From Trueperaceae bacterium (lineage in GTDB: Bacteria > Deinococcota > Deinococci > Deinococcales > Trueperaceae), in contig OZ243927.1 of NCBI GenBank assembly GCA_965213925.1, positions 3,424,001 through 3,488,000 on the forward strand: 64,000 nucleotides of DNA, in the 5' to 3' direction. Under the pieces are notes generated by a model. That model saw only the letters and a list, made by a program, of their open reading frames with translations, was not told the DNA's origin and did not search any database. Positions within the stretch are counted from its first letter, which is position 1; the number at the start of each line of letters is the position of its first letter. The position numbers and the translations under genes are program-made. Of this stretch, positions 363 to 63,490 are shown one piece after another.

Positions 363-388
363 AGTTACAGTCGCGCGCAACTCGCGCA
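363..388. repeat. GCGCGC-core dyad site 1 (left arm degenerate)
   Basis: agtt-acag-tc-GCGCGC-aa-ctcg-cgca; accessory dyad at 398-423. Confidence 0.7.
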
Positions 389-472
389 CAAAGCTTCTGC
401 CGCGAAAGGCCCGTAGAGTTGCACAAACCTTTCGGCGAAAGGACGTTTGTCGCAAACCCCGGTCAATAAGCC

Positions 473-1270
473 TCAGGCTTGTTGGCTGGGCGCGTTTTTG
501 CCTATAGCATCGAGCGGTAACATCTCGGTCAGACGCGCTGACTCGGTTAAACTGCTCTTGAGGTACTGTCTCCCCGCCAGGTAAACGAGCAGCCACTGCA
601 CCGACGCGAGGGCGTTGTAGATCATGTCGATGTTGTAAGACTCGGGCAAACGCACGTAAAATAGATCGGCGAGAAACCACGCGAGGGTCGCGCCGCTCAG
701 CAGTAAAAAGGGTCGGGTGAGGCGCAGCTCGGCGCGTGAGAACCAGAGCGCCGCCGCAGGCAACACCAGCAAGGCGCTGAAGTACGTTTTGGCGTTGTCC
801 GCGACCGATATACCTAATTCGAAGTCCAGGATGACGCCGAGCACCAACGCGACGACAAAGGTGACTGAGGAAACCAGTAAGATGAGCTGCGCGATAAGCT
901 CGATGAAGATCGCGCCTCTGAGCCGCCTATAGACGATAAAGATGGCGAGCGACAAGGCGTACGCCCACGGCGCGCATTCGAGCGTCCACAGTGTCGCGCC
1001 CGCTAGCTCTAGCGCGAGTGGCATCTCGCCCGTGACGCTCCCGTAGACCCAAGCCAAGTTTGCGAAGGCAGTGAGCAGCGCCGCGAACGAGAGCGCGTAG
1101 AGTCCGCGCTGCCAGCGCAGCCCCTGCGCCGCCTTGCCAAAACGAAAAAGCGCCAGGGAGCTCAGCGCCATGAGCAGCGTATAGCTCACCTCCCCGAAGA
1201 GCGAAGGTAACAGGCCAGCCATCACCAGAAGACAAAGACCGACAACTAATCCGTAAGCAGCGATCATCAC
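473..1270 (-). CDS. Multi-pass membrane protein, translationally coupled to the upstream GGDEF/EAL gene
   Basis: 265 aa with about 7-8 hydrophobic segments; ATGA overlap at 1267-1270. Confidence 0.7.
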   Translation of the reverse strand: MMIAAYGLVVGLCLLVMAGLLPSLFGEVSYTLLMALSSLALFRFGKAAQGLRWQRGLYALSFAALLTAFANLAWVYGSVTGEMPLALELAGATLWTLECAPWAYALSLAIFIVYRRLRGAIFIELIAQLILLVSSVTFVVALVLGVILDFELGISVADNAKTYFSALLVLPAAALWFSRAELRLTRPFLLLSGATLAWFLADLFYVRLPESYNIDMIYNALASVQWLLVYLAGRQYLKSSLTESARLTEMLPLDAIGKNAPSQQA

Positions 1271-4373: not shown

Positions 4374-4399
4374 TGCAGCTGTTGCGCGCGTTCGTGACC
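4374..4399. repeat. GCGCGC-core dyad site 2
   Basis: tgca-gctg-tt-GCGCGC-gt-tcgt-gacc. Confidence 0.75.
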
Positions 4400-5403: not shown

Positions 5404-5512
5404 AGTCATACTCGCGGCTTTTCATGATCGAGAAGGTACCGCAGTCGCAATGCGTGTGGTCGGGTAGCAGGAGACCGTCACTGGCCTCCCGCCCCTAAGA
5501 GCCGTGCGTGCG

Positions 5513-7948
5513 GTAGGGTAGGATGCCAGCGAGCTGCCTATCAAAGATAGCGCTTTTCCAACATCCCCCCTCCGAACCCCGCATGACCGCTTTCCGTGTC
5601 ACGGGGCTCTCCAGTAATCTCAACATGAAAGTCCTTTCCCGTGGTAGTGCCCTTTATGGATGTCTTGGTGGCAGGTGAGGCAGACCACCAGCGTCTTGCG
5701 TCGGCGAGCCGACATCCTTTGCATCCATTCGGGCCGTGACTTACGCCCTCTTTGTTCAAGGTCTGCCAGTTTTCGGACGTGATGCACTTCGACGTGCTCC
5801 ACCGACCCACAAAGCTCACAGCTTTGCGCTAAAAGGCGGTCCACCACTTCATTACGCCCGTTCCAAATCTTACTGTTCTGGTTGTCGTCCAAGGCTACCC
5901 ATTTGTTCCACCGTAACGGGATGCCGCCAAAGTGGGTGATGAGTGGCTTCTTTTTAGGACCACGGTCCACTTTGACTTGAAGGACTTTATAGCTGCCCTC
6001 CTTGAGGTCGATGGTGGTGCGGTAGCGCCGATAGATTTTCTGGCAACTCGTCCTGAACTTATTCGCCAGCGTTTTCACTAGCGAGAGTTCTGTGACGCGC
6101 TTGAGTCGGCCCAGCGTGTGGAGGTTGTAGGCCATGCGGTAATACTGCACGACCCCGCGGTATTCCGCTTGATATTGGCTGACGATGCTGTAAGCATCGC
6201 TGCTGAGCCTTTGTGGGAGGTGAATGGGCTTGCCGCGTCGCATGTACTTGGCGCAGTGCGCTTTCATGACGTGCGACGGTACCCGGAGTCCGACGCTGCC
6301 GTTGATGCAGCGTTGTCCCCGGTGGTCGTGTTTATCGTCAGCGTGAAGAATGTGGACCTCATAGCCCAGGAAACGCGCTTTCTGCGTGCGCGCGTGGGTC
6401 AGCAGGGTCTTATCCTCGCTAAGCTCAAGCTTGAGTTCGTCGCGTAAGAAGGCGGCAATCTCTTGCTTGATAGCCACGGCCTCGTCTTTTGGCCCTTTCA
6501 GCCCCAGCAGAAAGTCATCGGCATACCTTTGGTACCACAATCGCCGGAAGTTCGGGTCATCGGGGTCGCGCGACGGCATTGTCTGGGCCTGCTGGCTCAG
6601 TTGCCGCGCGGTCTCCCAGTTCCCTGCTTTCCGAGCGTCGTGAGCGGCTTTGGCGATGGCGACATACGGGGGGTAGGTCTTGCGGCGTTCGCCGCGTGTG
6701 TAAGCTGGTATCAGTTCGTGCTCGACAAACTTGTCCAGCCTGTCCAGAACCAGGTTGGTGAGGATTGGACCGACAATCGACCCTTGCGGCACACCGCTGT
6801 AGGTCTGGTGAAAGGTCCAGTTCTCCAGGTAGCCAGCTTCGAGCAGCCCCTTGATAAGCCGCAGGAAGCGGTTGTCGTGGAAGCTCTTCTGCAAGATGTT
6901 CAACAAGACATCGAAGTTAATCTTGTCGAAACACGAGCAGATATCTCCCTCGATAAACCACTTTGTACCTCGACCCTCTTGGGTGACTTTGCGCAAAGCT
7001 GTGTGGCATCCCCGTTTCGGTCGAAAGCCGTGAGAACGGTCGCTGAACCGCGGTTCATAATAGGCTTCCAGGATGGAGCGGATAACTTCTTGAAGAAGTT
7101 TGTCCGACCAGGAAGGCATCCCTAGAGGCCGCATCTTGCCATTCTTTTTGGGAATGTAACGGCGTCGTACCGGCGTCCACCGATACCGCTCTTGGCGTAG
7201 CGCCTCGATGATGGTATCAATTTTCGCTAGGGACATCCCGTCCACGGTTTCGTCCGAGGCACCTGGTGTCAGTGCGCCTTCGTTCTTGTAGAGCTTGGCG
7301 TAGGCGCGCAGGTAGAGGTCAGGCCGGTAGAGTAGGCGATACACCCTTTTAACCGGCAGGCCACGCTGGCCGCGTTCACGTAGGATGGTGAGTACCGTTT
7401 CGGCGGTTCGCATCTCGCGTACCTCACAGTTCCTTTCCATCATGATTACCTGGTCTCCTTCGCCCTGCGAACGGCTCTCCCGCTCTCCCTGGTGGGGCGT
7501 GACGCCCACGACTACTACGAGACCTCCGTTACCTTAGGACTCGCGTCCCTTAGGCAATCCCGTGTTTCGTCACTGAGGAACGTGCTAGAACGACTTAGGC
7601 TCGCCACTCATAGCCTTGGATGAACTCATTGTTCATCGCCCATCAAGCAGAGCGTCATTTGGACGAAACTTGAATCCAAATGTCCTGATGGCGTCGGTGT
7701 ACAGACGTGCTACCGACGGGTGTGCGTGACCACCGCTGGCTATTGGCGTTCAAACAATCCAGTCTTAGCCTTATCATTCAGGCGTTGCAGAGCCGCATCG
7801 TACACGTCTTCCTTTGCGCTCCGCTTTAATGCCATGCTCTTGTCCCCTCCCTCCTTTCGAGCTCAGGTTAGGCATCCGCCTCGGGGTCGTTTGCCCTGAA
7901 CCCCGGCCAACTCCGTTGGCAATTCACTCAATGCGCACCACGGCGCAC
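5513..7948 (-). mobile_element. Inner group II intron (LtrA/mitochondrial-like lineage) inserted in domain V of the outer intron
   Basis: 5' GTGCGCCGTGG at 7948; domain V GAGCCCCGTGACACGGAAAGCGGTCATGCGGGGTTC; 3' ...ATCCTACCCTAC at 5513. Confidence 0.9.
5620..7413 (-). CDS. ltrA: Group II intron reverse transcriptase/maturase with C-terminal HNH endonuclease
   Basis: RPLGMPSWSDK, WFIEGDI, GVPQGS, RYADDF, CELCG..EVHHV..CLTCHQDIH; ATG 7413 follows a GAGGT RBS (ORF track extends to 7509). Confidence 0.95.
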   Translation of the reverse strand: MRTAETVLTILRERGQRGLPVKRVYRLLYRPDLYLRAYAKLYKNEGALTPGASDETVDGMSLAKIDTIIEALRQERYRWTPVRRRYIPKKNGKMRPLGMPSWSDKLLQEVIRSILEAYYEPRFSDRSHGFRPKRGCHTALRKVTQEGRGTKWFIEGDICSCFDKINFDVLLNILQKSFHDNRFLRLIKGLLEAGYLENWTFHQTYSGVPQGSIVGPILTNLVLDRLDKFVEHELIPAYTRGERRKTYPPYVAIAKAAHDARKAGNWETARQLSQQAQTMPSRDPDDPNFRRLWYQRYADDFLLGLKGPKDEAVAIKQEIAAFLRDELKLELSEDKTLLTHARTQKARFLGYEVHILHADDKHDHRGQRCINGSVGLRVPSHVMKAHCAKYMRRGKPIHLPQRLSSDAYSIVSQYQAEYRGVVQYYRMAYNLHTLGRLKRVTELSLVKTLANKFRTSCQKIYRRYRTTIDLKEGSYKVLQVKVDRGPKKKPLITHFGGIPLRWNKWVALDDNQNSKIWNGRNEVVDRLLAQSCELCGSVEHVEVHHVRKLADLEQRGRKSRPEWMQRMSARRRKTLVVCLTCHQDIHKGHYHGKGLSC

Positions 7949-7983
7949 ACTTTCACCGCACACGGCTCAAGCCAATCACGAAG

Positions 7984-8118
7984 CTACCGCGATAAGCTCG
8001 TAGTAGCCCTGAAGATTCGCCCTCTCAGATTGCGAACCCGCCAATTGACAGCTCGCCAGTTCACAGCGTGCCAGTCCGTAGGTCCTTCGGTTTCGTTTGC
8101 AGAGCTTCGGGCTCGCAT
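7984..8118 (-). pseudogene. 44-aa remnant of the outer intron's RT ORF (N-terminal RVT_N-like segment)
   Basis: MRARSSANETEGPTDWHAVNWRAVNWRVRNLRGRIFRATTSLSR*; the W..(I/V).W....V..L..RI..A pattern of chloroplast-like IEP N-termini, located just before domain V. Confidence 0.75.
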
Positions 8119-9060
8119 CTAACTTCCCCTTAGTTGGCAACCTTCAGAACATCTCTCTAGGAGATTGACCAGTCCCACGTCAGCACCCTTTCGGGTTGAG
8201 TATCGGCTCTATCTAGCCCCTTATGATTTCGGGTCGCCTTTCGGCGGCTAGCCTTCGCTTCTTGGGACCTCCTATGCCCGCTGGAGCGTTCGGCGTTCCT
8301 TACGGTTCGCTTACCTGCAACAGGACTCCAACGGGGTTTCCGTGTTCCACTTGTGTGAGCTGCGACCGGGTTAGGCGTGCTCTCTACTCCGGGGTCATGG
8401 TGTCCTCGTGCAGAACGCGCGTACTCTCTGCACCTGTTGAGGCGAGATACCTTATCCTTAGCCTCGACCCGACCATGCCTTATCAACCATCCTTCGACAA
8501 ACCGAACTAACGGAGCTTTGACCGAGCATTCACGTTCGTTCGCCTTACCGGTCTTTCCCTCACCCGAGTCTCTACGATGGTTTAGATTCTCTTAGGCTTT
8601 ACCTCCAGCTTCACACCTTGCCATTACTGGCAACGCATGTGGAAGTCGGGAATGAGCCTGGACACTGGCTCAGAGTTCTTTTCCTCCTTCCTAACTCACT
8701 CACTTCAAGCGACTTCACGTCGCACACGCGCGCGTTAGTCGCACAATGGTTCGTGTGTTGAAAAAGGGTTAAGGGGAAGGTCGAATAACGATGTAATACG
8801 GCTTTCGGGTAACTCCCCTAGGGATTACCTCGAGCGTAGCGAGTAGAAAGAACTACGGATTTCAATGAGTGCGTTCGGACTTCGGTGAAACCCACTGCTC
8901 GTCACTTTGTGGTGTCATGTTGATAGAGCACATAAGAAGCTCAGCTGAGCGCTAGTTCGGCTACAAAGATACTTGTGGTTGTACTTAGCCACATGACGGT
9001 ATACTCTGGGCATCCAAGGTTTGAAGACAAGCCTAGTTCTTGCCGAGCGGAGGGAGTCCA

Positions 9061-11970
9061 ATGGGTAGAGAAGTTTTTCGTTTCCACATCGTCAGACCAC
9101 CAGACGAAAATTTTTTAGAGAAGTTGGGTATTCTCCTCAACCCTGAGGATAGAGAAACTCCTTCTATGAGAGAACTTAGAGAGGCGAAAACACGCGAGGA
9201 GGCGGAACGAGCTGCCACGCGCAACAAAGCTTCAGACGAGTATCTAGACCCTGAGGACGTGCCCGACAATTACAAAACGTTAGCCGAGTGGCAAAAGCAA
9301 AATCCCCACGCACCTCAGGAGCAGGTAGCTAAGGAGGCAAGCATCATCCTCGAGCGCGACCCGCAAGAGGTTGTGGCTAGCGAGGCCTTCCAGTCTCTCC
9401 TCGCTAGGGGAGCAGCTAGCGAAGCCAGCGATTTAATACTAGGTGAACAAGGTTCATCGAAGCAGGCCGTAAAGTATCTACTTGCCGTCAGTAAAGCAGC
9501 TGGCAAGCGTCCCGTCCTCCCCCTCAATCTTAAGTTTGCACCAGGTCCACAGAGCAACACAATGTCTGAGCCTGAGACTTCTAAAATAGATTCGCCGGTC
9601 CCAAGCTTGGTTCAGCTTCAGGCATTGAAGCGGCGTCTGATAAGCTTAAGCCCGTCTAGCCCAACACTCACACTTCAGCAGCAAAGATTCATGCAAGATG
9701 TAAGCCTCCCTCAAGACGACACGACCGGAGATAGTCCCGGCAGAGCAGAACCTCCGCAGCCTGTAGTTATCAGTGACGTCTCCCTCAAGGAGACTGAGGT
9801 CAGCCAACTAAAATCTCTTCAGCTCAGCGCTGACGCATCCATTTCAGAGGCAGTGAATGAACTCGATAGGCAAATGCTGCTTAAGGCCGAGGTCTCAGTA
9901 GCTCCCGCGAGTGCACCTGTGGTCCGGAGTGGGATGCTTGTGATGAGTGCGACCGCATCTGCTGGTGGACCGCAAGCGCTCACTGAATTCAAGGGGGGCT
10001 ACGTTCAAGGGTTTAAGGTCTCTGACCTCGAGGTAGCGGAGCGTGACCTAAAGAGATACGAAGCAGGAGAGATTGCTCACATCGAGAACGCCCTTATGGG
10101 CGAGCGCCGGGTGAGGGAGCATATTAGAAATACGCTACGCGAGGACGTCACCTTTGTGGAGACAAGTATCCTTGAGGCTACAGAGGAGGAACTCCAGACA
10201 GAGGAGAGATTTGGTTTAACGAGAGAAGCGCGTAACGTGCAGCGCTCAGAGGTCGAGAAGCGTGCCGGCTTAAAGCTGGATGCGAGCTACGGACCCTCGG
10301 TAAACGTAGAGACCTACGCTGACTTTTCCTTAACCACGTTTAGTGAGTCTGTCAGCACGACCGCTAGCGAATACGCGAAGACGGTGTCCAGCTTGGCAAC
10401 TGCCCGGATACAGCGTACCTTTAGGGAGCAGCGCCTTACCCGCCGAGTGGAGTCGGTCGAGGAGACAAACTCTCACGAGATTGACAACCGGAACGCTGAC
10501 GGTCACACTGTCGGAATCTACCGCTATGTCGATAAGGTTTACAGCGTCCAGGTTCGTAACTATGGTGTTAGGCTAATGCTCGAGTTTGTCCTTCCTGAGC
10601 CAGGAGCTAATCTCCTGAGGATTGCTAGCCAACCCGTCGGTCAGGTGCTGGTTTTGGACAAGCCGGAGCCGCCGAGGGTGAATGGTAAACCTCTCGAACT
10701 ATCCGATATTGATCCAAATAACGATCTGTGGCGCGTCGTCGCGGCCCGGTATGGTGCCGCGGTCGAACCGCTTCCCGAGAAAAAGGTAGTCTCCCTGACG
10801 CTTAAGTTCGACGAGAAGCCTAACCTCGAGAGAGACGAGGTGAGCCGCCGCGTCGACTCGAATACGGACGAGATCCGGAGCGTTCAGGTCGTTTGGGACG
10901 AGGGCATACTCAAGGTTCCGGATGGTTACGAGGCGCTTAGGGTCTGGGGCACCTCCCTAGGTTTCAACACGACCATAGCTGTATCTTTCGACAAGCATAG
11001 AGCTGAGATAGTTGGGGCAAAACAGCATGTGAAAGTTTATGGTTCAGATTACGTCCGCACCGGCCAAATGCTGGGTGGCTTCAAAGTGCGGGCCGGGATG
11101 GGCCGGGCTGTTGACCTTATAGAGCGCTACGGTGCAGGCGGTGACCTGTACGTTTCGGCTATTTCGTTAGAGACAGAGGAACACAATTATCTCTCCATGG
11201 TAGGTTTCGTCGCCGCCGCTCATGGTCCCCTGGTCATCGAGGCTCTCTGCACACCTACGGAGGAAAGCTGGAACACCTGGCGTTACGAGGTATATACCGC
11301 CATCATGGAGGCGTACAGACAGCAGCAGGCAGCCTACCTAGAAGCGCTGGCTGCCGAAGAGGTGGCGCAAGGGACGAGCATTGACGGGCGCAACCCTGCT
11401 ACTAATCGAGAAGTTGAGAGGGACGAGATCAAGCGGGGCGTGGTCACCTTATTGCGCGGCAGCAAGCCCGACACGGGCTCACTTGCCCAGGATGGCTTTA
11501 GCCCTGACGTCGCGAAGGCCGCTGCACACGGACCCCTCATCAGGTTTTTCGAGACGGCTTTTGAGTGGGAGCACATGGTCTTCGAGCTAGCGCCCTACTT
11601 CTGGGCGAACCCGGATCGTTGGGACCAACTTCTCAAAGCCGACGATCCTGACCCAGAACATAGAAGGTTTCTTCAAGCGGGCTCAGCGCACGTCACCCTC
11701 CCGGTCAGACCTGGGCACGAGTTCTACGCCGCTGCGGCTGTCAGCTTGCTACAGATGACTGGAGGCTCACTTAAGCCTGAGCTATTTACTTCCGAATTAC
11801 CTAACGTCATCCTTCGCGAGTTGTTGGTCGCATCCTTGGAGGCTTCTATCCTCAGAAAGCAGAGGCAAACCGAAGGTCCCGTCGATGTAGGAAAGCCCTT
11901 CGAGGTGACCGTACCAACAAACCTGGTTATCTTGCAGGAGGGCTCGGACCTAAACGAGGCTAAGACGTGA
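9061..11970 (+). CDS. Large uncharacterised protein (~970 aa)
   Basis: Long ORF; blocks YEAGEIAHIENALMGE, GIYRYVDKVY..QVRNYG.RLMLEF..PEPG and FFETAFEW...PYFW; no function assignable. Confidence 0.75.
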   Translation: MGREVFRFHIVRPPDENFLEKLGILLNPEDRETPSMRELREAKTREEAERAATRNKASDEYLDPEDVPDNYKTLAEWQKQNPHAPQEQVAKEASIILERDPQEVVASEAFQSLLARGAASEASDLILGEQGSSKQAVKYLLAVSKAAGKRPVLPLNLKFAPGPQSNTMSEPETSKIDSPVPSLVQLQALKRRLISLSPSSPTLTLQQQRFMQDVSLPQDDTTGDSPGRAEPPQPVVISDVSLKETEVSQLKSLQLSADASISEAVNELDRQMLLKAEVSVAPASAPVVRSGMLVMSATASAGGPQALTEFKGGYVQGFKVSDLEVAERDLKRYEAGEIAHIENALMGERRVREHIRNTLREDVTFVETSILEATEEELQTEERFGLTREARNVQRSEVEKRAGLKLDASYGPSVNVETYADFSLTTFSESVSTTASEYAKTVSSLATARIQRTFREQRLTRRVESVEETNSHEIDNRNADGHTVGIYRYVDKVYSVQVRNYGVRLMLEFVLPEPGANLLRIASQPVGQVLVLDKPEPPRVNGKPLELSDIDPNNDLWRVVAARYGAAVEPLPEKKVVSLTLKFDEKPNLERDEVSRRVDSNTDEIRSVQVVWDEGILKVPDGYEALRVWGTSLGFNTTIAVSFDKHRAEIVGAKQHVKVYGSDYVRTGQMLGGFKVRAGMGRAVDLIERYGAGGDLYVSAISLETEEHNYLSMVGFVAAAHGPLVIEALCTPTEESWNTWRYEVYTAIMEAYRQQQAAYLEALAAEEVAQGTSIDGRNPATNREVERDEIKRGVVTLLRGSKPDTGSLAQDGFSPDVAKAAAHGPLIRFFETAFEWEHMVFELAPYFWANPDRWDQLLKADDPDPEHRRFLQAGSAHVTLPVRPGHEFYAAAAVSLLQMTGGSLKPELFTSELPNVILRELLVASLEASILRKQRQTEGPVDVGKPFEVTVPTNLVILQEGSDLNEAKT

Positions 11971-13493
11971 GCCTGCAAAGCAGCCGCGGGCTTCCCAAAA
12001 AGCGCCGAGGAGGACATCGTCTGAAGGATATCGCTAATATCGCCTTCGGTGGTGGCGGCGCAAAAGGCGTTGCCCACGTAGGGGCGCTCGCTGGACTGGA
12101 GAAAGCGGGTGTGCTTATTTACGGAGACTATAGCTACCGTGAGGGTCACCTTCTCAAACGCCTTAGTAGACTCGTACCGGGGACAATCGGACTCTCGGGC
12201 ACAAGCATCGGTTCGCTCATTGCCGCGCTCACTGCATCGGGTTACACCTCAGCAGAGTTGAAGGCTAAGCTGCTCGACAGCAACGCAATGCTTAAAGCTG
12301 TAGTGAACTTCCAAAGTGCTGCTAGCGCGGGTATACCTACATTGGATCAGAACTTCGCCTACGATCACAAGCCTGCTAAGCGGGAGGGCGCGATATGGGG
12401 TGTTAAAAAATCAGCGCCTCTGACTGTCGATACCCGTAGGCAATACATACGGAAAGGAGGCTGGGTCTTTTTTGGCACACGAGGCAAAGTGGTAGCTAGG
12501 AACGTTGGCTTCTTCGCCCTTAGGTATGCCGTGGAGTCGGAAATACATGATGTGTTAGCTGAACTCTTCCGTGAGAGCTCGCGGCGCGCGCCAAGGGGCG
12601 GTGCGAACGGACTATCTACCTTAGATAAGAACAGGTTGCAAAAACTTGCAGGTGACGCTATACCTGAAACAGTTTATAGATACCTCGGTTTCTTTAAGGG
12701 GCAATCTTTAGTACAACTCGTGAGTCAGCTCATCTATTCAAAGCTGAGGCCTGGTGAGCGTGAGCTGATTCATGAGGACAACCGTATGTATTTCGGAGTA
12801 AAACGGATTGAGGACTTATCAGAAGCCCAGCGAATGAGGGTGTCGTTCGCCCGCCATAAAGAGTGCTTTGGCATCAACCTGAGACTCACCGGGGCCAACC
12901 TCGAGACACAAATGAGCCACGTGTTTAGCGCCCGCACTACTCCTACGATGGCAGTAGCGGACGCCGTACGCATCTCGGCGAGCTTCCCACTCCTATTTAG
13001 ACCGACTCTTATCTCCTTTGAGAAAGCCGAAAAGATGTCTGAGGCAGAGTCTTGGGCGCTGAGCCCCGAAGAGCTTACGGGCATATGGATCGACGGCGGC
13101 ATATACAATAACGTACCTTGGGACGTGTTCGACACCGGCTTAACTCTTGGCTTAGCGCTGGGTGCAACGCCTGAGGAGAAGCGTAGTCCCGCCTGGCAAA
13201 CTGTCCATGACCCGTTCTCTTACCCACCTTTTGAAGAGGATGAAGAGGACCGCCTCAACGCACTACTAGAAACCTATGCGCACAGCAAACTCCTGGACGA
13301 TACGTCGCGGCTCAACAATAGTTACGGTAACGTTAAGTATAGTCGGATTCGCTTAGACGCAACTCCCATTGATACACTCGATATAGCGGGGTATCACAAC
13401 CTCCCACTCCGAGAGCGAACGGCTTTGCTGAATCGCAACCAGACTATTGTTTCGTCACACCTAAAAAAATTTACCTCTGTCGCCCAGCGGTAA
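11967..13493 (+). CDS. Patatin-like phospholipase
   Basis: GGGGAKG glycine loop, GTSIG nucleophile, WIDGG; GTGA overlap with the upstream gene. Confidence 0.88.
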   Translation: MSLQSSRGLPKKRRGGHRLKDIANIAFGGGGAKGVAHVGALAGLEKAGVLIYGDYSYREGHLLKRLSRLVPGTIGLSGTSIGSLIAALTASGYTSAELKAKLLDSNAMLKAVVNFQSAASAGIPTLDQNFAYDHKPAKREGAIWGVKKSAPLTVDTRRQYIRKGGWVFFGTRGKVVARNVGFFALRYAVESEIHDVLAELFRESSRRAPRGGANGLSTLDKNRLQKLAGDAIPETVYRYLGFFKGQSLVQLVSQLIYSKLRPGERELIHEDNRMYFGVKRIEDLSEAQRMRVSFARHKECFGINLRLTGANLETQMSHVFSARTTPTMAVADAVRISASFPLLFRPTLISFEKAEKMSEAESWALSPEELTGIWIDGGIYNNVPWDVFDTGLTLGLALGATPEEKRSPAWQTVHDPFSYPPFEEDEEDRLNALLETYAHSKLLDDTSRLNNSYGNVKYSRIRLDATPIDTLDIAGYHNLPLRERTALLNRNQTIVSSHLKKFTSVAQR

Positions 13494-13614: not shown

Positions 13615-13640
13615 GGTCGGAGTTGCGCGCGTCCAACGCA
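13615..13640. repeat. GCGCGC-core dyad site 4
   Basis: ggtc-ggag-tt-GCGCGC-gt-ccaa-cgca; accessory dyad from 13580. Confidence 0.75.
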
Positions 13641-14609: not shown

Positions 14610-14635
14610 TACGTCAAACGCGCGCAACACGCGCC
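14610..14635. repeat. GCGCGC-core dyad site 5
   Basis: tacg-tcaa-ac-GCGCGC-aa-cacg-cgcc; accessory cgca at 14667-14670. Confidence 0.75.
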
Positions 14636-16598: not shown

Positions 16599-16624
16599 TG
16601 CGTGTGATGCGCGCGTTCGTCGCA
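16599..16624. repeat. GCGCGC-core dyad site 6
   Basis: tgcg-tgtg-at-GCGCGC-gt-tcgt-cgca; accessory dyad from 16564. Confidence 0.85.
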
Positions 16625-20644: not shown

Positions 20645-20670
20645 TGCGCGTGTTGCGCGCGTTTGCCGCA
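20645..20670. repeat. GCGCGC-core dyad site 7
   Basis: (cttg)tgcg-cgtg-tt-GCGCGC-gt-ttgc-cgca(caag). Confidence 0.85.
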
Positions 20671-23160: not shown

Positions 23161-23186
23161 CGCGACGAACGCGCGCGTCTCCAGCA
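23161..23186. repeat. GCGCGC-core dyad site 8
   Basis: cgcg-acga-ac-GCGCGC-gt-ctcc-agca; accessory dyad ending at 23221. Confidence 0.8.
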
Positions 23187-25125: not shown

Positions 25126-25151
25126 TGCGAGAGATGCGCGCAACTCACGCG
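25126..25151. repeat. GCGCGC-core dyad site 9
   Basis: tgcg-agag-at-GCGCGC-aa-ctca-cgcg; contains the TGA stop of the 25145-25870 gene. Confidence 0.8.
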
Positions 25152-25870
25152 GACTGCGCGCCCCTGTCTGCCCTCGAAGCCTTGCTCACCCTGCTCGGCT
25201 GCTCCGAAAACACCTTGACGAGCGAGTAGAGGTGGGTAATTAGAAACAGCGGCACGGCGAAGATAGGGATCATCGTGAAGTAGTTGAGGTCATAGGGCTG
25301 CTGGGTCGTCAACAGGTAGGGCTGGATGAACAGGGGGCCGGTGGTCAGCGCCACCACAAAGTCGGCCAAGCCGAGGACGTTCCAGCCGAGGATCGCCTGA
25401 CGGGCCCGGCTGTGCCCGGTGACGAACAGATAAAGAACGAATGGCACGGCGAGTGCCGTGATCACGTCGCCATAGCCTGCGGGCAGTGCAAATCCTGCGG
25501 GCAGGTACCCCAGCTCCGACAAGATGATGAAGTTGAAACCGATAATCCGCAGCATGTGGGGGGCGATCAGCATCGTTTGAGGTATAGCGGCGACGAGCTG
25601 ACGGAATTCGGGCTGGCTCAGCAGCAGCGCGCCGCCTAAAATAGGGATAAGTAACGGGAAGAGCACGAAGTAGACGGGGGTCGCCTCCGCGAAGATGAAG
25701 TTCCTATGCGATAGGTAGAGCGTGAGAGCGAGCCAAGCCGCCATCCCGACGCCTATACGGACGCCGAGCGAGCGGCGCTTGGCGGCGTACGCCGCATTGA
25801 CGCTCACCCAGATAGCAAGGGTGACGGCGAGGGCGACCATCATGCCGACGGTGGTGGAGGGAAAAGGCAT
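25145..25870 (-). CDS. Membrane protein
   Basis: About 7 TM; LPAGFALPAGYGDVITA, WNVLGLADF. Confidence 0.75.
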   Translation of the reverse strand: MPFPSTTVGMMVALAVTLAIWVSVNAAYAAKRRSLGVRIGVGMAAWLALTLYLSHRNFIFAEATPVYFVLFPLLIPILGGALLLSQPEFRQLVAAIPQTMLIAPHMLRIIGFNFIILSELGYLPAGFALPAGYGDVITALAVPFVLYLFVTGHSRARQAILGWNVLGLADFVVALTTGPLFIQPYLLTTQQPYDLNYFTMIPIFAVPLFLITHLYSLVKVFSEQPSRVSKASRADRGAQSA

Positions 25871-25947
25871 AACTGTGTTCCTTTCGCGAGCTGTGAATAG
25901 CCTAGGATTGCCGACGGGCGTTCAAGAAATGACTCAATACCGTGGTC

Positions 25948-27393: not shown

Positions 27394-27410
27394 CCGACGC
27401 TCCTTGTGCT

Positions 27411-27420
27411 TGTATATACA
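27411..27420. promoter_or_regulatory. MarR operator candidate (second copy at 27902-27911)
   Basis: Palindrome tgtatataca upstream of the MFS gene; tgtatatgca upstream of the marR gene. Confidence 0.55.
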
Positions 27421-27440
27421 CGCTTATGGCCAGTGAAACA

Positions 27441-27887
27441 TCACTTGAGCAGGTTAAAACGGTTTAGGTGGTTTAGGAATACACCGTATTCCTCCTCTTC
27501 GAACAGCGTCTTCACCTCCTCTTGCGCCTGCACCCACAAGGGGTACGCCTCGTCGATGAGGCGTTCGCCCGCGTCCGTGATGCTGACGCGCTTTGCCCGC
27601 GCGTCCTCCTGGTCCGCTTTGACGTCGAGTAGCCCCCGTGTAACAAGCGGTCTCAAGTTACGGCTTAGAGTGCTCTGGTCCATCGCCAGCAGATCAGCTA
27701 ATTCTCGGATGGACTGCGACCCCGCGCCCGAGCTTGTGACTAATAGGGTGAACTGGGTGATGTGCAACCCGAGCGGGCTGAGCGCCTTGTCATAGAGCGC
27801 CGTCAGGGTGCGCTCAGTCCGTTTGAGGTTGTAGTGGGCGCAGCTCCGGGCAACGTGGCGGCGCTTCTGCTGTCGGTCGGTAAGCAC
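27441..27887 (-). CDS. MarR-family regulator
   Basis: YDKALSPLGLHITQFTLL, MDQSTLSRNLRPL, DARAKRV. Confidence 0.88.
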   Translation of the reverse strand: MLTDRQQKRRHVARSCAHYNLKRTERTLTALYDKALSPLGLHITQFTLLVTSSGAGSQSIRELADLLAMDQSTLSRNLRPLVTRGLLDVKADQEDARAKRVSITDAGERLIDEAYPLWVQAQEEVKTLFEEEEYGVFLNHLNRFNLLK

Positions 27888-27976
27888 CTCATCACTTTAC
27901 ATGTATATGCAAGTTTCTGTCAATCGTGTTCATTGAGATAGTCGAGCGAGGTGTATGTGTGAACTTAGATTTCTTC

Positions 27977-28002
27977 TGCGACGAACGCGCGCGTTCGCCG
28001 CA
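27977..28002. repeat. GCGCGC-core dyad site 10
   Basis: (cttc)tgcg-acga-ac-GCGCGC-gt-tcgc-cgca(gaag). Confidence 0.88.
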
Positions 28003-28199
28003 GAAGCACCGAGTTTGTTGGAGACACGTTCTGCAAGCTTTTTCAGTCTGGATATCTCCATGCGCTCGCATAACTATTTGAACTCCACTTTAGAAAGATG
28101 GAATTCTTTTTAGAACAGGAACTCGTTGGAGTTCAAGAGTATTCGCAAGTAAGTTTCGGGTGTTGAGTTTGCTTGAAAATGTGGCTAGAAATTGCTGCT

Positions 28200-28455
28200 T
28201 ATAGCTGCAAACAACAAAGGACCATGAACAATGCCAACTAAATACCAGGGAGGGTTTTTGAATCGCCCTACAACTGCCGCGATAAGAGATTAACGCACTT
28301 GTTATGAGAATATAAATACTTGAGCCCATCAACATGAGTTCTCCGAGTCCGAAGGAAGAATTTGCATCCGATGAAGCAATCATGGCTATTCCCGCTAAGA
28401 TCAACACGCTACAAAACCCGAAGTGGGCTATCCAAACTTTCGATAAATTCGCCAT
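28200..28455 (-). pseudogene. Frameshifted tandem paralog of the 28479-28754 membrane protein
   Basis: MANLSKVWIAHFGFC...SFGLG...IYIL, then RRFKNPPWYL in another frame. Confidence 0.6.
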
Positions 28456-28478
28456 TCTCATCCTCTTCGGCATTAACC

Positions 28479-28754: not shown

Positions 28755-28929
28755 AGCGTCAACCTCTCTATACTTTTATGACAGCTCTGCAAAAACCATA
28801 CCTCGTAAAGTTTAAGTTTAGCCCCTCAACGACCAGGATTCGGCAAATTTCTCATAGCAGCTATCTGTGTTGAAAAAATAGTCGCCCACGATTTGTACCT
28901 TGCTCAATTTTCCAGAATTGACCGACGAA

Positions 28930-28960: not shown

Positions 28961-28970
28961 AAACCTACTA

Positions 28971-31940: not shown

Positions 31941-32001
31941 AACCCCTAAAATGAAGTGAGCTTTTGTGCGTGTGAACGGGCCGAGGCTCGCCTGAGGCTT
32001 T

Positions 32002-32027
32002 CGCAAGAGATGCGCGCAACTCGCGCA
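32002..32027. repeat. GCGCGC-core dyad site 11
   Basis: cgca-agag-at-GCGCGC-aa-ctcg-cgca; accessory dyad at 31967-31992. Confidence 0.82.
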
Positions 32028-35822: not shown

Positions 35823-35848
35823 TGCGAGAGATGCGCGCGTCTGTTGCA
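35823..35848. repeat. GCGCGC-core dyad site 12
   Basis: tgcg-agag-at-GCGCGC-gt-ctgt-tgca(gaag). Confidence 0.85.
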
Positions 35849-37576: not shown

Positions 37577-37602
37577 TGCGCGAGTTGCGCGCAACTGTGT
37601 CC
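37577..37602. repeat. GCGCGC-core dyad site 13
   Basis: (cttc)tgcg-cgag-tt-GCGCGC-aa-ctgt-gtcc. Confidence 0.8.
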
Positions 37603-38420: not shown

Positions 38421-38446
38421 TGCGTGTGATGCGCGCGTCTCTCGCA
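38421..38446. repeat. GCGCGC-core dyad site 14
   Basis: tgcg-tgtg-at-GCGCGC-gt-ctct-cgca(gaag); accessory dyad at 38386-38411. Confidence 0.88.
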
Positions 38447-39821: not shown

Positions 39822-39847
39822 TGCGCTTAACGCGCGCGTTTGTTGCA
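39822..39847. repeat. GCGCGC-core dyad site 15
   Basis: (cttc)tgcg-ctta-ac-GCGCGC-gt-ttgt-tgca(gaa). Confidence 0.85.
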
Positions 39848-49753: not shown

Positions 49754-50300
49754 TACGCTGGTTGGCACAAAACGTGGCGCTAGGCGATTTTCTTTGCTCC
49801 AAACAGCCTTGGTTGCTCAAAATGACTTAGAGAAAATAAGCTCGGAAGGGGCAAGGCGGCGCGCATCTCGGTAAACGACCGTTTTTGCAATCTGTTCAGC
49901 GTCTGGCTGTGACTGGTTAAACCACCTACGCTCATTGCAACCGAGTTTCACTGTCAGATTTATCGTCTAATTCTATCCACAGGGCAGGTCGAATACCGCC
50001 ACTATCTTTAGGTCTGCCATAGACACCATCGCCACGAACATAAATACGTCCGTATCTATTTACACTGGCAGCAGTGCGACCATAATAGCCTGGTGAGCGA
50101 AGTCGCCACCAATAGAATTTACTTTATCTTCTTTAGTGACCCCGACGGCAACAGTTAGGCAGTGCAGCAAATCTCGAGCCGCAGTTGAACGAGGTAATTT
50201 TTATACGTGTGAACAGGCCGAGGCGTGCGTAAGTCTTCTGCGTGTGGTCGGGTAGCAGGAGACCGTCACTGGCCTCCCGCCCCTAAGAGCCGTGCGTGCG

Positions 50301-52736
50301 GTAGGGTAGGATGCCAGCGAGCTGCCTATCAAAGATAGCGCTTTTCCAACATCCCCCCTCCGAACCCCGCATGACCGCTTTCCGTGTCACGGGGCTCTCC
50401 AGTAATCTCAACATGAAAGTCCTTTCCCGTGGTAGTGCCCTTTATGGATGTCTTGGTGGCAGGTGAGGCAGACCACCAGCGTCTTGCGTCGGCGAGCCGA
50501 CATCCTTTGCATCCATTCGGGCCGTGACTTACGCCCTCTTTGTTCAAGGTCTGCCAGTTTTCGGACGTGATGCACTTCGACGTGCTCCACCGACCCACAA
50601 AGCTCACAGCTTTGCGCTAAAAGGCGGTCCACCACTTCATTACGCCCGTTCCAAATCTTACTGTTCTGGTTGTCGTCCAAGGCTACCCATTTGTTCCACC
50701 GTAACGGGATGCCGCCAAAGTGGGTGATGAGTGGCTTCTTTTTAGGACCACGGTCCACTTTGACTTGAAGGACTTTATAGCTGCCCTCCTTGAGGTCGAT
50801 GGTGGTGCGGTAGCGCCGATAGATTTTCTGGCAACTCGTCCTGAACTTATTCGCCAGCGTTTTCACTAGCGAGAGTTCTGTGACGCGCTTGAGTCGGCCC
50901 AGCGTGTGGAGGTTGTAGGCCATGCGGTAATACTGCACGACCCCGCGGTATTCCGCTTGATATTGGCTGACGATGCTGTAAGCATCGCTGCTGAGCCTTT
51001 GTGGGAGGTGAATGGGCTTGCCGCGTCGCATGTACTTGGCGCAGTGCGCTTTCATGACGTGCGACGGTACCCGGAGTCCGACGCTGCCGTTGATGCAGCG
51101 TTGTCCCCGGTGGTCGTGTTTATCGTCAGCGTGAAGAATGTGGACCTCATAGCCCAGGAAACGCGCTTTCTGCGTGCGCGCGTGGGTCAGCAGGGTCTTA
51201 TCCTCGCTAAGCTCAAGCTTGAGTTCGTCGCGTAAGAAGGCGGCAATCTCTTGCTTGATAGCCACGGCCTCGTCTTTTGGCCCTTTCAGCCCCAGCAGAA
51301 AGTCATCGGCATACCTTTGGTACCACAATCGCCGGAAGTTCGGGTCATCGGGGTCGCGCGACGGCATTGTCTGGGCCTGCTGGCTCAGTTGCCGCGCGGT
51401 CTCCCAGTTCCCTGCTTTCCGAGCGTCGTGAGCGGCTTTGGCGATGGCGACATACGGGGGGTAGGTCTTGCGGCGTTCGCCGCGTGTGTAAGCTGGTATC
51501 AGTTCGTGCTCGACAAACTTGTCCAGCCTGTCCAGAACCAGGTTGGTGAGGATTGGACCGACAATCGACCCTTGCGGCACACCGCTGTAGGTCTGGTGAA
51601 AGGTCCAGTTCTCCAGGTAGCCAGCTTCGAGCAGCCCCTTGATAAGCCGCAGGAAGCGGTTGTCGTGGAAGCTCTTCTGCAAGATGTTCAACAAGACATC
51701 GAAGTTAATCTTGTCGAAACACGAGCAGATATCTCCCTCGATAAACCACTTTGTACCTCGACCCTCTTGGGTGACTTTGCGCAAAGCTGTGTGGCATCCC
51801 CGTTTCGGTCGAAAGCCGTGAGAACGGTCGCTGAACCGCGGTTCATAATAGGCTTCCAGGATGGAGCGGATAACTTCTTGAAGAAGTTTGTCCGACCAGG
51901 AAGGCATCCCTAGAGGCCGCATCTTGCCATTCTTTTTGGGAATGTAACGGCGTCGTACCGGCGTCCACCGATACCGCTCTTGGCGTAGCGCCTCGATGAT
52001 GGTATCAATTTTCGCTAGGGACATCCCGTCCACGGTTTCGTCCGAGGCACCTGGTGTCAGTGCGCCTTCGTTCTTGTAGAGCTTGGCGTAGGCGCGCAGG
52101 TAGAGGTCAGGCCGGTAGAGTAGGCGATACACCCTTTTAACCGGCAGGCCACGCTGGCCGCGTTCACGTAGGATGGTGAGTACCGTTTCGGCGGTTCGCA
52201 TCTCGCGTACCTCACAGTTCCTTTCCATCATGATTACCTGGTCTCCTTCGCCCTGCGAACGGCTCTCCCGCTCTCCCTGGTGGGGCGTGACGCCCACGAC
52301 TACTACGAGACCTCCGTTACCTTAGGACTCGCGTCCCTTAGGCAATCCCGTGTTTCGTCACTGAGGAACGTGCTAGAACGACTTAGGCTCGCCACTCATA
52401 GCCTTGGATGAACTCATTGTTCATCGCCCATCAAGCAGAGCGTCATTTGGACGAAACTTGAATCCAAATGTCCTGATGGCGTCGGTGTACAGACGTGCTA
52501 CCGACGGGTGTGCGTGACCACCGCTGGCTATTGGCGTTCAAACAATCCAGTCTTAGCCTTATCATTCAGGCGTTGCAGAGCCGCATCGTACACGTCTTCC
52601 TTTGCGCTCCGCTTTAATGCCATGCTCTTGTCCCCTCCCTCCTTTCGAGCTCAGGTTAGGCATCCGCCTCGGGGTCGTTTGCCCTGAACCCCGGCCAACT
52701 CCGTTGGCAATTCACTCAATGCGCACCACGGCGCAC
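50301..52736 (-). mobile_element. Inner group II intron, copy 2
   Basis: Same boundaries within domain V of the outer intron. Confidence 0.9.
50408..52201 (-). CDS. ltrA: Group II intron RT/maturase/HNH, copy 2
   Basis: Protein identical to 5620-7413. Confidence 0.95.
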   Translation of the reverse strand: MRTAETVLTILRERGQRGLPVKRVYRLLYRPDLYLRAYAKLYKNEGALTPGASDETVDGMSLAKIDTIIEALRQERYRWTPVRRRYIPKKNGKMRPLGMPSWSDKLLQEVIRSILEAYYEPRFSDRSHGFRPKRGCHTALRKVTQEGRGTKWFIEGDICSCFDKINFDVLLNILQKSFHDNRFLRLIKGLLEAGYLENWTFHQTYSGVPQGSIVGPILTNLVLDRLDKFVEHELIPAYTRGERRKTYPPYVAIAKAAHDARKAGNWETARQLSQQAQTMPSRDPDDPNFRRLWYQRYADDFLLGLKGPKDEAVAIKQEIAAFLRDELKLELSEDKTLLTHARTQKARFLGYEVHILHADDKHDHRGQRCINGSVGLRVPSHVMKAHCAKYMRRGKPIHLPQRLSSDAYSIVSQYQAEYRGVVQYYRMAYNLHTLGRLKRVTELSLVKTLANKFRTSCQKIYRRYRTTIDLKEGSYKVLQVKVDRGPKKKPLITHFGGIPLRWNKWVALDDNQNSKIWNGRNEVVDRLLAQSCELCGSVEHVEVHHVRKLADLEQRGRKSRPEWMQRMSARRRKTLVVCLTCHQDIHKGHYHGKGLSC

Positions 52737-52771
52737 ACTTTCACCGCACACGGCTCAAGCCAATCACGAAG

Positions 52772-52906
52772 CTACCGCGATAAGCTCGTAGTAGCCCTGA
52801 AGATTCGCCCTCTCAGATTGCGAACCCGCCAATTGACAGCTCGCCAGTTCACAGCGTGCCAGTCCGTAGGTCCTTCGGTTTCGTTTGCAGAGCTTCGGGC
52901 TCGCAT
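52772..52906 (-). pseudogene. 44-aa remnant of the outer intron's RT ORF, copy 2
   Basis: Same as 7984-8118. Confidence 0.75.
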
Positions 52907-53699
52907 CTAACTTCCCCTTAGTTGGCAACCTTCAGAACATCTCTCTAGGAGATTGACCAGTCCCACGTCAGCACCCTTTCGGGTTGAGTATCGGCTCTAT
53001 CTAGCCCCTTATGATTTCGGGTCGCCTTTCGGCGGCTAGCCTTCGCTTCTTGGGACCTCCTATGCCCGCTGGAGCGTTCGGCGTTCCTTACGGTTCGCTT
53101 ACCTGCAACAGGACTCCAACGGGGTTTCCGTGTTCCACTTGTGTGAGCTGCGACCGGGTTAGGCGTGCTCTCTACTCCGGGGTCATGGTGTCCTCGTGCA
53201 GAACGCGCGTACTCTCTGCACCTGTTGAGGCGAGATACCTTATCCTTAGCCTCGACCCGACCATGCCTTATCAACCATCCTTCGACAAACCGAACTAACG
53301 GAGCTTTGACCGAGCATTCACGTTCGTTCGCCTTACCGGTCTTTCCCTCACCCGAGTCTCTACGATGGTTTAGATTCTCTTAGGCTTTACCTCCAGCTTC
53401 ACACCTTGCCATTACTGGCAACGCATGTGGAAGTCGGGAATGAGCCTGGACACTGGCTCAGAGTTCTTTTCCTCCTTCCTAACTCACTCACTTCAAGCGA
53501 CTTCACGTCGCACACGCGCGCGTTAGTCGCAGCAGGATAGAGATTCTAAATGTCCGGAGAGCAACCCCTTTCCAAAAGAAAAGCCGTAGAAAATATCGAA
53601 CAAAGCTGAGCTTCAACGCGCCTTAGAAATCGGAAAACTATGAAAAATTTCCTCAAAGTCAAAGTGCTTCTTTTTACCCTTCACCACCAACAACTTCAA

Positions 53700-61709: not shown

Positions 61710-63401
61710 GGCTCTTACGAAAGTTGTGTGGTCAGGCAGCCAGCAGCACCTTTTGCCTGAGCAGGTCAAAGCTAGCGCGTCCATACATCTGCCGCTTGAG
61801 CAACTTGAGCTTAGTAATTTTACCCTCGGTCGGTCCATTGCTCCACGGCAGAGTTAATGCCACTTCGATAGCCGCCTTATCGTTGCTGAAACCTTTCGCC
61901 AAGCGAGCGAGTTCATCAACGCCGCTCGCTCTTTATGGTGTCGCTGAGCCAGCGTTGAAACGCCGCTATAGTTTCATGGGGTGCTCGTTCCTTGCACCTG
62001 AATAGCGCGACGAAGCGTTGCACCAGGTCGTAGCAACGCTCCGCTTCTTGCGCACCCTCGAAGAGCCGCTCGAGTCGTTTGAAATCGTGCTGAGTTAGCG
62101 CCCCTTTTGAGCTTGTAAATAAGCGCGTCGCCTCATACGCCGAATAACGCATGACCCTTTGTCTCTTGTCTGCCCTCGAAAAGTCAATGCCCGCTTCCAA
62201 CTCGGCAAAGTAGGCGTAGACGAGACCATAAGCACCGGTGAAGCCCCGCGCCGTGATCTCCCGGTAGAGCTGCATCTTGTTGCCGATGCCCGCATCCCAT
62301 CTTTGTTTGAGATAGGGTTCGTAGGGCGCTAAGATGCGATTTTTCTGTCTATCAGGATACGTACCCCGAGCAAACCAACGGCTCAGCGTGCTCCTGCCGA
62401 CACCGAGCTTGGCAGCAATCTTAGGAAGACTAAAGCCGTCCGCTTCTAAACGCTTGGCTTCTTCGAAGATGGCTCGGCGTTTGCGGCGCGTCTCGAGCTT
62501 CGCTTGCAGCGCCCTTTCGTAGCTGGTGCGGACGTGAATCTGCTGAGGCACATCGCCGCCAGATTCGTGTCCATCATCAGAAAGCTCAACCAGATACTTT
62601 TTATGGCGCTCGCACCAGCGTTTCAAGAGGTCGCTGAAGTTTTTGAGCAGATGCCAACGGTCGGCGACCTGAACCGCTTGGGGTGCGCCCTCGTCGCAAG
62701 CGGATTTGTATTCCTGAGAGCGATCGCGAGAGATGGTTTCGACGCTAGGATGCGCCTTTAGCCAGTCCACCAGGGTTGCTGAGCTTCTGTCGGGTAGAAC
62801 GTCGACCACTTCGCGTTTTTCCAGGTCAAGCAACAGGGTGCCGTAACTTTCCCGTTTCCGAATAGCAAAATCGTCCACACCCAGCACGCGCGGTGTTGCT
62901 CGTGTCACTAAGCTCTGGGTTCGGACAAGGTCGAGCGCGCTATCGTGGCTCACAGGCATCTCTAACTGTCCGAGCAGGTCTTCGCTCGCTTTAGCGCTTA
63001 GAGAGGTCGCCACACGACGTTGCGCGTCGCTCAAGCGTTTGCTTCTATGTGCGTAACGCGCCAGCCAGGGGTCGAAAGACTCTGCGAACGTTCTTCTCTC
63101 ACAGCAACGATTTAAGCAGTAGAACCGTTTGTCTTTGAGACGCAACTGAACTGTGTGATCAGCCAGGGGCAAATCAGCAGGATGGCGTTGGTAGTAACCA
63201 CTTACCTTGTTTGATAGCGCCTGGCAGAGCGGACAATTCGCCTCCGTTTTACGTGAGCCGTGAGCACCAAACCACCTTCGCGAACTTTGAACGCTTCGAT
63301 GACACACGCTGGAAACAGGATATCGAGCATCCTTCATGCTGTTCGCTAGCCCTTCAAGATGCAAGACCCAACCCAGTTCCCACAATTCTTTCGTAAGAGC
63401 C
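61710..63401 (-). mobile_element. ISL3-family insertion sequence (degenerate)
   Basis: Terminal inverted repeats GGCTCTTACGAAAG at 61710 and 63401. Confidence 0.85.
61732..63330 (-). pseudogene. ISL3 transposase with frameshifts near 63250 and 61925
   Basis: CPLC, VLGVDDFA, QVADRWHL, WSNGPTEG..TKLKLLKRQMYGRA. Confidence 0.85.
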
Positions 63402-63464
63402 ATCAAGTGCCCAAATTAGATGGTATACGCAATAATGGAAAGGCTCGGGTGCGTAGCGTCCTTG

Positions 63465-63490
63465 TGCAACGAACGCGCGCGTTAAACGCA
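63465..63490. repeat. GCGCGC-core dyad site 17
   Basis: (cttg)tgca-acga-ac-GCGCGC-gt-taaa-cgca(gaag). Confidence 0.85.

Follow-up and report, generated by a model that had tools for sequence, protein, structure and literature searches.

GCGCGC-centred dyad sites bound recurrent gene modules in Trueperaceae genomes, with a linked Xer-like recombinase as candidate catalyst

The dyad array in the window

A stretch of 64,000 nucleotides from a Trueperaceae genome (contig OZ243927.1, positions 3,424,001 to 3,488,000; hereafter the window, with positions counted from its first letter) is divided into gene modules by copies of a short dyad with a GCGCGC core. An earlier note, made from the sequence alone, had listed these dyads and proposed that they are the crossover sites of an undescribed module-shuffling system. 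This proposal is supported by the clustering of the sites in islands, by breakpoints at their core and by modules shared between arrays, and our data further point to a Xer-like tyrosine recombinase, encoded in related arrays, as the probable catalyst. Allowing up to three mismatches, we found 15 intact dyads in the window, against 0.64 expected from shuffles (maximum 3 in 100 shuffles), and each pattern match falls on a coordinate that had been listed. Two further sites, split by an intron, bring the total to 17. A matrix built from the sites of other genomes also picks out exactly these 17 places in the window at 10 bits or more (0.04 in shuffles), a test that is only partly independent because the same pattern had served to find its training sites.

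Coordinates are given for the 26-bp dyad, without strand; the full 34-bp site extends 4 nt further on both sides. Pattern and matrix together identify site 1 (363..388, 26.5 bits), site 2 (4374..4399), site 4 (13615..13640), site 5 (14610..14635), site 6 (16599..16624), site 11 (32002..32027), site 12 (35823..35848), site 15 (39822..39847) and site 17 (63465..63490); the other intact sites are described below with the genes and modules that they bound. All 17 sit between long open reading frames (ORFs), that is, at the boundaries of gene units as had been claimed, and the stop codon seen within site 9 (25126..25151) belongs to the ORF 25145-25870(-). The sites cover 0.9% of the window and delimit 16 modules of 0.8-10.4 kb (median 2.7 kb, introns removed). 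In an all-vs-all BLAST of the 120 nt on either side of the 17 sites, similarity was confined to the 26-34 bp of the site, with the exception of 19 nt common to the flanks of sites 11 and 16, which we later read as a variant site. Since similarity ends at the site edge, long conserved flanks of the kind found with attC sites or miniature inverted-repeat transposable elements are ruled out.

A logo drawn from 62 sites, those of the window and of related genomes, describes a site of about 34 bp, in which two arms of about 14 nt (c-c-T-T-S-T-G-C-R-n-S-A-R-W-Y) flank an almost invariant GCGCGC. Each of the 59 sites with a score of 20 bits or more has GCGCGC as its core; in four lower-scoring ones the core is mutated. 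The CTTS...SAAG extension of the dyad is real: the two T at -2/-1 carry about 1.0-1.3 bits per position although they lay outside the search pattern, and the S and A positions of the arm are informative too, likewise outside it. The arms are near-symmetric and do not fall into two classes of the XerC/XerD type; the likeness to a XerC arm that had been pointed out goes back to one arm variant among 66, and we do not retain it.

The 118 arms of the 59 sites comprise 66 sequence variants. Complementarity between mirrored arms, over 14 positions, is 8.08, against 7.92 +/- 0.23 in shuffled arm pairs, and at the three variable positions it is 1.24 against 1.18 in shuffles. As single-stranded DNA, only one of 6 sites folds better than its own shuffles. 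The two arms vary independently and hairpin covariation is absent, so that the preference of the earlier note for a double-stranded protein site stands. Such independence is expected of a central crossover, because this makes each site a hybrid of the half-sites of two modules.

The two remaining sites are each interrupted by a group II intron. The first copy (5459..8725, minus strand) separates the left 8 nt of site 3 (5451..5458) from its right 18 nt (8726..8743: 2 nt of arm, the core and the right arm; found by the matrix); Rfam places domain V/VI at 5513-5611 and D1-D4 at 8588-8673, and an ORF at 5623-7509 encodes 629 residues with reverse-transcriptase, maturase and HNH domains. The second copy (50247..53513, minus strand) is identical to the first and splits site 16 into 8 nt (50239..50246) and 18 nt (53514..53531, matrix). 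The 3267-nt intron is the same in both copies, and so is the entire 26-bp site that it splits (100% identity over 5451-8743); both copies are inserted between nucleotides 8 and 9 of the arm, 2 nt from the core. The two split entries of the earlier note are thus real, representing one 26-bp site each, but the intron insertion behind them had not been recognised. It appears that the intron homes into these recombination sites. Over the window, Rfam models matched nothing but the intron. Dyad arms on contig_8, the 783-kb contig of a relative, adjoin what is left of the 3' ends of related introns; positions of about 4016 and about 11714 in the dyad-bearing locus L027 belong to the same observation.

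Sites with arms of the same type but an asymmetric CGGGCC centre form a second, smaller set: six are found at an arm score of at least 6, against 0.1 in shuffles. They are seen where small arrays end; one precedes a recombinase gene and one ends a 99.7% duplicate. Four variants partner a GCGCGC site at 9 nt and in fixed orientation (398/363, 31967/32002 and 50204/50239 in the window, 84760/84799 on contig_8). The window variants at 398..423 (minus strand, next to site 1) and 31967..31992 (plus strand, left of site 11) make composite double sites, and that at 50204..50229 (plus strand, left of site 16) is a weaker variant with a CAGGCC centre; two of these three are weak. Elsewhere variants lie in loci L030 (9966-9999), L021 (9142), L006 (10860), L007 (14244) and L019 (12166). 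A scan with a single-arm matrix was too noisy to reveal half-sites, 27 of its 50 matches having a centre other than GCGCGC, with no centre in common.

Clustering, shared modules and breakpoints in related genomes

We scanned 185,579 species genomes with a strict 30-nt pattern, which matches 6 of the 15 intact sites of the window. It retrieved 31 loci in the whole collection, 22 of which belong to five Trueperaceae metagenome-assembled genomes (MAGs). The other nine are single matches in unrelated taxa (four MAGs labelled Bordetella, two Alcaligenaceae, one Verrucomicrobiae, one Brevibacterium, and Erwinia psidii), with no further site within 20 kb; they were dropped from later analyses, and six overlapping Trueperaceae loci were left out as well. 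On contig_8, 12 of 13 strict matches lie between 11 and 120 kb (P ~3e-9 under uniform spread), and there are strict matches on no further contig of that assembly. A looser scan of the fetched loci of contig_8 gave 17 sites at 1.7-56.4 kb, 16 at 84.8-124.1 kb and 3 near 735-740 kb, counts that leave out 66.5-74.8 kb. A complete relative chromosome of 4.5 Mb has six strict matches in four places, as many as the 64-kb window, and two further relatives of 4.2-4.3 Mb have one each. The window itself comes from none of these genomes, its closest match to them being 98.5% over 797 bp. Far from the even spread that had been named as telling against a shuffling system, the motif thus clusters in islands and is almost absent elsewhere in the 4.2-4.5 Mb relatives.

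Six of the 16 window modules are found again in other arrays, with identities of 79-98%. They are the Xre-RES pair (79%), an aldo-keto reductase with a phosphoribosyltransferase (83-90%), a MarR-hydrolase-TspO-ABC operon (80%), flanked elsewhere by the only two sites seen in that genome, an endonuclease/phosphatase module (96%), a MarR module (98%) and a one-gene module (93%). Five of the six are inverted and one is direct, and their order differs: on contig_8 the shared modules lie at 53, 37, 46, 120 and 102 kb, which does not follow the order in the window. Identities that vary so widely between one pair of genomes argue for separate histories of the modules. In the MarR module (window 25126-27977, L029 10001-12097) the window copy has an MFS transporter gene which the contig_8 copy lacks, having a MerR gene instead; module content therefore changes away from the sites too. 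The presence of modules in both orientations supports the further suggestion of the earlier note that a symmetric core would allow them to be joined either way.

Among match ends at 92% identity or more (8 ends of window-versus-locus matches and 6 within-genome ends), 10 of 14 lie inside a 34-bp site, mostly at the edge of its core. For instance, a module shared with contig_8 at 96% runs from site 7 (20645..20670) to site 8 (23161..23186), where homology ends 2 nt past the core, and the 98% match to contig_8 likewise ends 2 nt past the core of site 10 (27977..28002). The one-gene module, 93% identical on contig_8, is bounded by site 13 (37577..37602; inner arm 10/10, outer arm 6/10) and site 14 (38421..38446; inner arm 10/10, outer arm 7/10). 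We compared nine boundaries, that at site 6 included, ungapped and anchored on the core. Three are clean, with the inner flank identical at 65-69 of 70 positions and the inner arm at 9-10 of 10, against 5-7 of 10 in the outer arm and 20-22 of 70 in the outer flank. At two more, small indels beside the site shift the ungapped view, and BLAST homology reaches the site; at another the inner arm is 10/10 and the flank is shifted; the last three are weighed below. Half-sites thus travel with their modules. Within genomes, three duplicates of at least 99.7% identity yield six ends, of which two fall exactly at the core edge, one in the arm of a variant site and one at the intron insertion inside a site. 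Breaks between and within genomes accordingly fall at GCGCGC, as the earlier note had suggested should be looked for. Sequence identity between sites is limited to the 6-bp centre and a few positions of the arms; with the breaks lying at the centre, these data point to site-specific rather than homologous exchange.

The cargo consists mostly of regulators accompanied by genes for efflux, hydrolases, oxidoreductases or glyoxalase-type proteins, of toxin-antitoxin pairs and of many proteins without an assigned family. The modules are multi-gene units that bring regulators of their own, operons and toxin-antitoxin pairs, encoded on both strands. IS6, IS630, IS3, IS4, ISL3, IS1595, IS200 and Tn3 fragments lie in or beside the arrays, as do introns; in the window, an ISL3-family transposase gene (61919-63406, minus strand) begins 59 nt from site 17. 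The shifts of composition noted earlier are present, with a GC content of 0.42 at 28-29 kb, right of site 10, and of 0.525 in the first kilobase. The AT-rich stretch 28001-29000 (GC about 0.57 elsewhere), with ORFs at 28093-28551 and 28974-30239 that belong to no Pfam family, is probably a recently acquired module. Another module (9040-13490) holds an uncharacterised two-gene unit: a protein of 976 residues with no Pfam or PADLOC match, whose gene overlaps by 4 nt that of a patatin-like phospholipase of 508 residues. A defence island was considered and rejected: 4 of 32 window proteins match PADLOC models (an HNH protein like PtuB, a subtilase, a WYL protein and a weak MotB-like match), and no system is complete. 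As to a plasmid origin, 24 kb of the window had no near match in 72,556 plasmids (7 short gene matches). Avoidance of GCGCGC outside the sites was rejected too, the window holding 67 occurrences for about 82 expected. Among its GC-only palindromes, GCGCGC (67) and CGCGCG (56) are common and GGCGCC (2), GCCGGC (5) and CGGCCG (4) rare, a scarcity that may reflect restriction avoidance.

A linked Xer-like recombinase and the alternatives

The earlier note had suggested a search for a tyrosine or serine recombinase at the array ends. A Pfam scan of 268 ORFs (63 from the window, 125 from contig_8, 80 from other loci) revealed one recurring recombinase family, of the tyrosine type, which adjoins sites in the related arrays. 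Serine recombinase, resolvase and invertase domains were absent from the scanned ORFs, and the analogy with the hix sites of serine invertases has no backing. The Xer-like protein is present in four copies in three genomes (two copies in one of them), 84-87% identical; intact copies have 292-296 residues and end with the catalytic tyrosine motif. In each case the gene lies in a site-bounded module, together with a Xre-RES pair or a YhcG/DUF1016 nuclease. In three copies a dyad precedes the start codon by 63-75 nt, and in the fourth a CGGGCC variant takes this place.

The residues R144, K168, H243, R246, H269 and Y278 are invariant in 38 homologues. The structural model (mean predicted local distance difference test score 86.6) has its best fold match in XerA, then in IntI4 (seventh rank) and XerD; among solved structures, XerD and XerA are its best relatives in sequence. 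The protein nevertheless scores below the cut-off of each model for a defined family: 206.5 bits vs 335 for XerC, 201.2 vs 329.6 for XerD, 187.9 vs 220 for XerA, 117.6 vs 265 for the integron integrase TIGR02249, 67.9 vs 435 for the integron integrase NF011946, and below cut-off for XerS too. Both integron models align in two stretches that skip the IntI-specific region. Homologues at 70-92% identity lie on contigs that include chromosomes of 4.3-4.6 Mb; the next tier, at 50-60%, is found in Alicyclobacillus, Sulfobacillus and other Bacilli, and plasmid homologues, at most 42% identical, on megaplasmids of the Bacillus group. Upstream of all four genes a leader hairpin with an 8-bp stem and a 13-nt loop covers the ribosome-binding site (fold z-score -2.7; L024 12072-12145, L030 11836-11903, L019 12086-12160, L005 7997-8065). 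It has no Rfam match and may be a translational control element.

Inverted arms, an overlap of 6-8 bp and an enzyme with the catalytic residues are what characterises a tyrosine-recombinase core site, and all are found here, the pairing of protein and site being a prediction. We therefore think it probable that the dyads are tyrosine-recombinase core sites and that the linked enzyme of 296 residues is their most likely catalyst. One recombinase monomer would bind each arm of about 14 nt, hence a dimer per site, and two sites would synapse, with strands exchanged at both borders of the 6-bp GCGCGC overlap, each module end carrying a half-site. Recombination between two sites would then excise a module, as a circle that bears a single full site, invert it, or insert a circle at any site. 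In related arrays the gene occupies a dyad-bounded module of its own, from which the enzyme would reach arrays such as that of the window in trans. The palindromic overlap, the same at nearly all sites, and the near-symmetric arms should make all sites compatible in either alignment, which would explain modules in both orientations and in scrambled order. Such a universal palindromic overlap would lift both the compatibility barrier and the direction of the reaction, so that excision, inversion and insertion would be open between any two sites. The role of the linked enzyme, the cleavage at the core edges and the circular intermediates are what we infer from this pattern.

Several observations weigh against this reading. 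The clustering rests on relatives, the source genome lying outside the comparison. At three or, with the left end of the 25126 module, four of the nine boundaries, mostly of modules at 79-90% identity, homology stops 25-300 nt short of the site. One end of a 100%-identical duplicate lies 6 nt inside the inner arm and not in the core, and another duplicate end coincides with no site. The assembled sequence contained no excised circle, inversion junction or empty site; L015 and L021, which share three flank genes, did not show an empty-site allele, their sites being about 3 kb apart relative to those genes. The recombinase gene is missing from the window and from the dyad-bearing loci L007, L015, L020, L021 and L027. 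Near its C-terminus, beyond LGHAS, the contig_8 copy (L030 10996-11835) is out of frame and lacks the catalytic tyrosine, either through a real frameshift that makes it a pseudogene or through an indel of the long-read assembly. Finally, as the loci had been selected for holding sites, the adjacency of recombinase and site is not an unbiased test of association.

Some of these points would be accommodated if the modules were exchanged in the same way but by the housekeeping Xer or another unlinked enzyme, the linked recombinase being cargo or the resolvase of a former plasmid. The gene is absent from the window and from five other dyad loci, the perhaps defective contig_8 copy nonetheless lies within the largest array seen, and homologues at 50-60% in Alicyclobacillus and Sulfobacillus and at 42% or less on Bacillus-group megaplasmids would fit a plasmid-borne resolvase lineage; dif modules, too, use the chromosomal XerC/XerD (PMC13141974). 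We nevertheless consider a housekeeping or unlinked catalyst unlikely, given that a site occupies the same upstream place in all four gene copies, as described for XerS/difSL and XerH/difH (PMC5357621), that the arms lack an asymmetry of the XerC/XerD type, and that the GC-only centre is unlike the dif sequences quoted in the latter source.

That the dyads are instead repetitive extragenic palindromic (REP)-like, regulatory or nucleoid-protein palindromes, whose coincidence with module boundaries would follow from short-repeat recombination and the tolerance of intergenic DNA, seems to us very unlikely. Every site is intergenic, as this would have it, and an IS200-type Y1 transposase gene lies 86 nt from a variant site in L021. 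Yet that protein is an ordinary IS200 transposase (133.7 bits as IS200; 26 bits with the model for REP-associated transposases, cut-off 80). The sites are clustered rather than dispersed, and in place of the hundreds of extragenic copies of REP-type dispersal the 4.5-Mb relative has its six strict matches. The identity shared between sites, a centre and a few arm positions, is also too small for RecA-type exchange, and yet breaks fall at the centre.

We give little credence to each module being a non-autonomous transposon, with half-sites as terminal inverted repeats and a transposase acting in trans to insert it at unit ends: half-sites do move with modules, and the arrays and their surroundings are rich in transposase genes, but no family of these consistently adjoins the sites, and the joints show no target-site duplication, the 6-bp centre being shared and not duplicated. 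As for a divergent integron, in which an integron-type integrase would recombine the dyads, as attC sites of very short length, in folded single-stranded form, the arrays of accessory genes with toxin-antitoxin modules and the rank of IntI4 among the structural matches are set against integrase scores far below cut-off with the IntI-specific region skipped, arms without covariation, central crossovers and multi-gene modules with their own regulators on both strands, and its probability is slight indeed.

Relation to known systems and significance

The system, read as one in which a linked tyrosine recombinase exchanges modules at the dyads, is best described as an undescribed recombination module-array, closest to dif-module islands and to integrons. 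In Acinetobacter, dif modules commonly consist of toxin-antitoxin pairs or of a gene with its regulator, lying between sites of arm, 6-bp spacer and arm; crossovers are central, between sites with identical spacers; there are also inversions, deletions and, on the loss of a site, fused modules; the sites are targeted by mobile elements, and islands of several modules occur on plasmids and chromosomes (PMC13141974; PMC12907356; PMC10132070). The arrays described here follow the same logic, with self-contained modules of this kind, the arm/6-bp/arm geometry, the crossover at the core and the identical centre. They differ in belonging to another phylum and in having an unrelated, near-symmetric site. 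The dif modules need two host enzymes, XerC and XerD, and their polar sites force C and D to alternate, whereas here symmetric sites would have neither C/D polarity nor an alternation rule, the invariant palindromic spacer should make every site compatible with every other in both alignments, and a single, probably dedicated recombinase gene stands beside a site. The arrays reach at least 17 sites in the window and 16-17 in each of the two contig_8 arrays, over 40-64 kb.

With integrons the likeness lies in large chromosomal arrays of accessory genes, repeated sites, toxin-antitoxin units, arrays without a nearby integrase (CALIN in integrons) and, in the window, a group II intron inserted in the sites; group II introns that target attC exist in integrons. 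Unlike attC sites, which are imperfect folded hairpins with R and L boxes, unpaired spacers and a variable terminal structure, conserved in structure and not in sequence, the dyads are 34-bp duplex-type sites conserved in sequence, with a central crossover, and unlike the mostly promoterless, co-oriented single-gene cassettes of integrons, the modules are multi-gene units of 0.8-10.4 kb with regulators, in both orientations. The integron integrase is defined by an additional domain, some 35 residues long, near patch III (PMC4889954); the recombinase found here is without this IntI-specific domain, and the 268 ORFs hold no other integrase candidate.

The arm, 6-bp centre, arm layout is that of dif and other tyrosine-recombinase core sites, and in XerS/difSL and XerH/difH the recombinase gene adjoins its own site (PMC5357621). 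To these single-recombinase systems, and to the archaeal XerA/dif, the present one is similar in its Xer-family enzyme, near-symmetric site and gene beside a site, XerA being also the best fold match. Unlike them, with their one site per chromosome and their function in dimer resolution, it has dozens of sites that bound movable cargo. In Cre/loxP and FLP/FRT one enzyme serves a 34-bp site whose inverted arms enclose a central overlap, and the spacers are asymmetric, which gives direction; the layout is the same here, but the major spacer is palindromic. With REP sequences and bacterial interspersed mosaic elements the dyads share only their nature as short intergenic palindromes in many copies, being clustered, without a REP-associated transposase, and broken at the centre. 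Our search of the literature, with most subscription journals outside its scope, turned up neither this site nor this recombinase, and no account of arrays in Trueperaceae.

One might speculate, more tentatively, that the whole is a self-contained gene-capture platform of integron rank and independent origin, confined to one Trueperaceae lineage, with one Xer-like recombinase and two classes of sites: symmetric GCGCGC sites for free excision, inversion and insertion, and asymmetric CGGGCC sites for direction, or as an entry or anchor. The arrays would then hold regulated units for detoxification, efflux and toxin-antitoxin functions as in an exchangeable library, spread between genomes one module at a time, a possibility that we raise without holding it to be the probable one.

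Integrons and the more recently recognised dif modules of Acinetobacter have been studied mainly in Proteobacteria and for drug resistance. If our reading is true, the Trueperaceae arrays would represent a third, mechanistically simpler solution to the module array in a distant phylum, with one recombinase, one universal symmetric site and self-regulated modules. They would constitute a natural test of the effect of a palindromic overlap on the directionality of tyrosine recombinases, and the 34-bp site and its enzyme would be a candidate pair for genome engineering. For the biology of these bacteria, the sites would offer a means to read module-level gene flow in uncultured Deinococcota.

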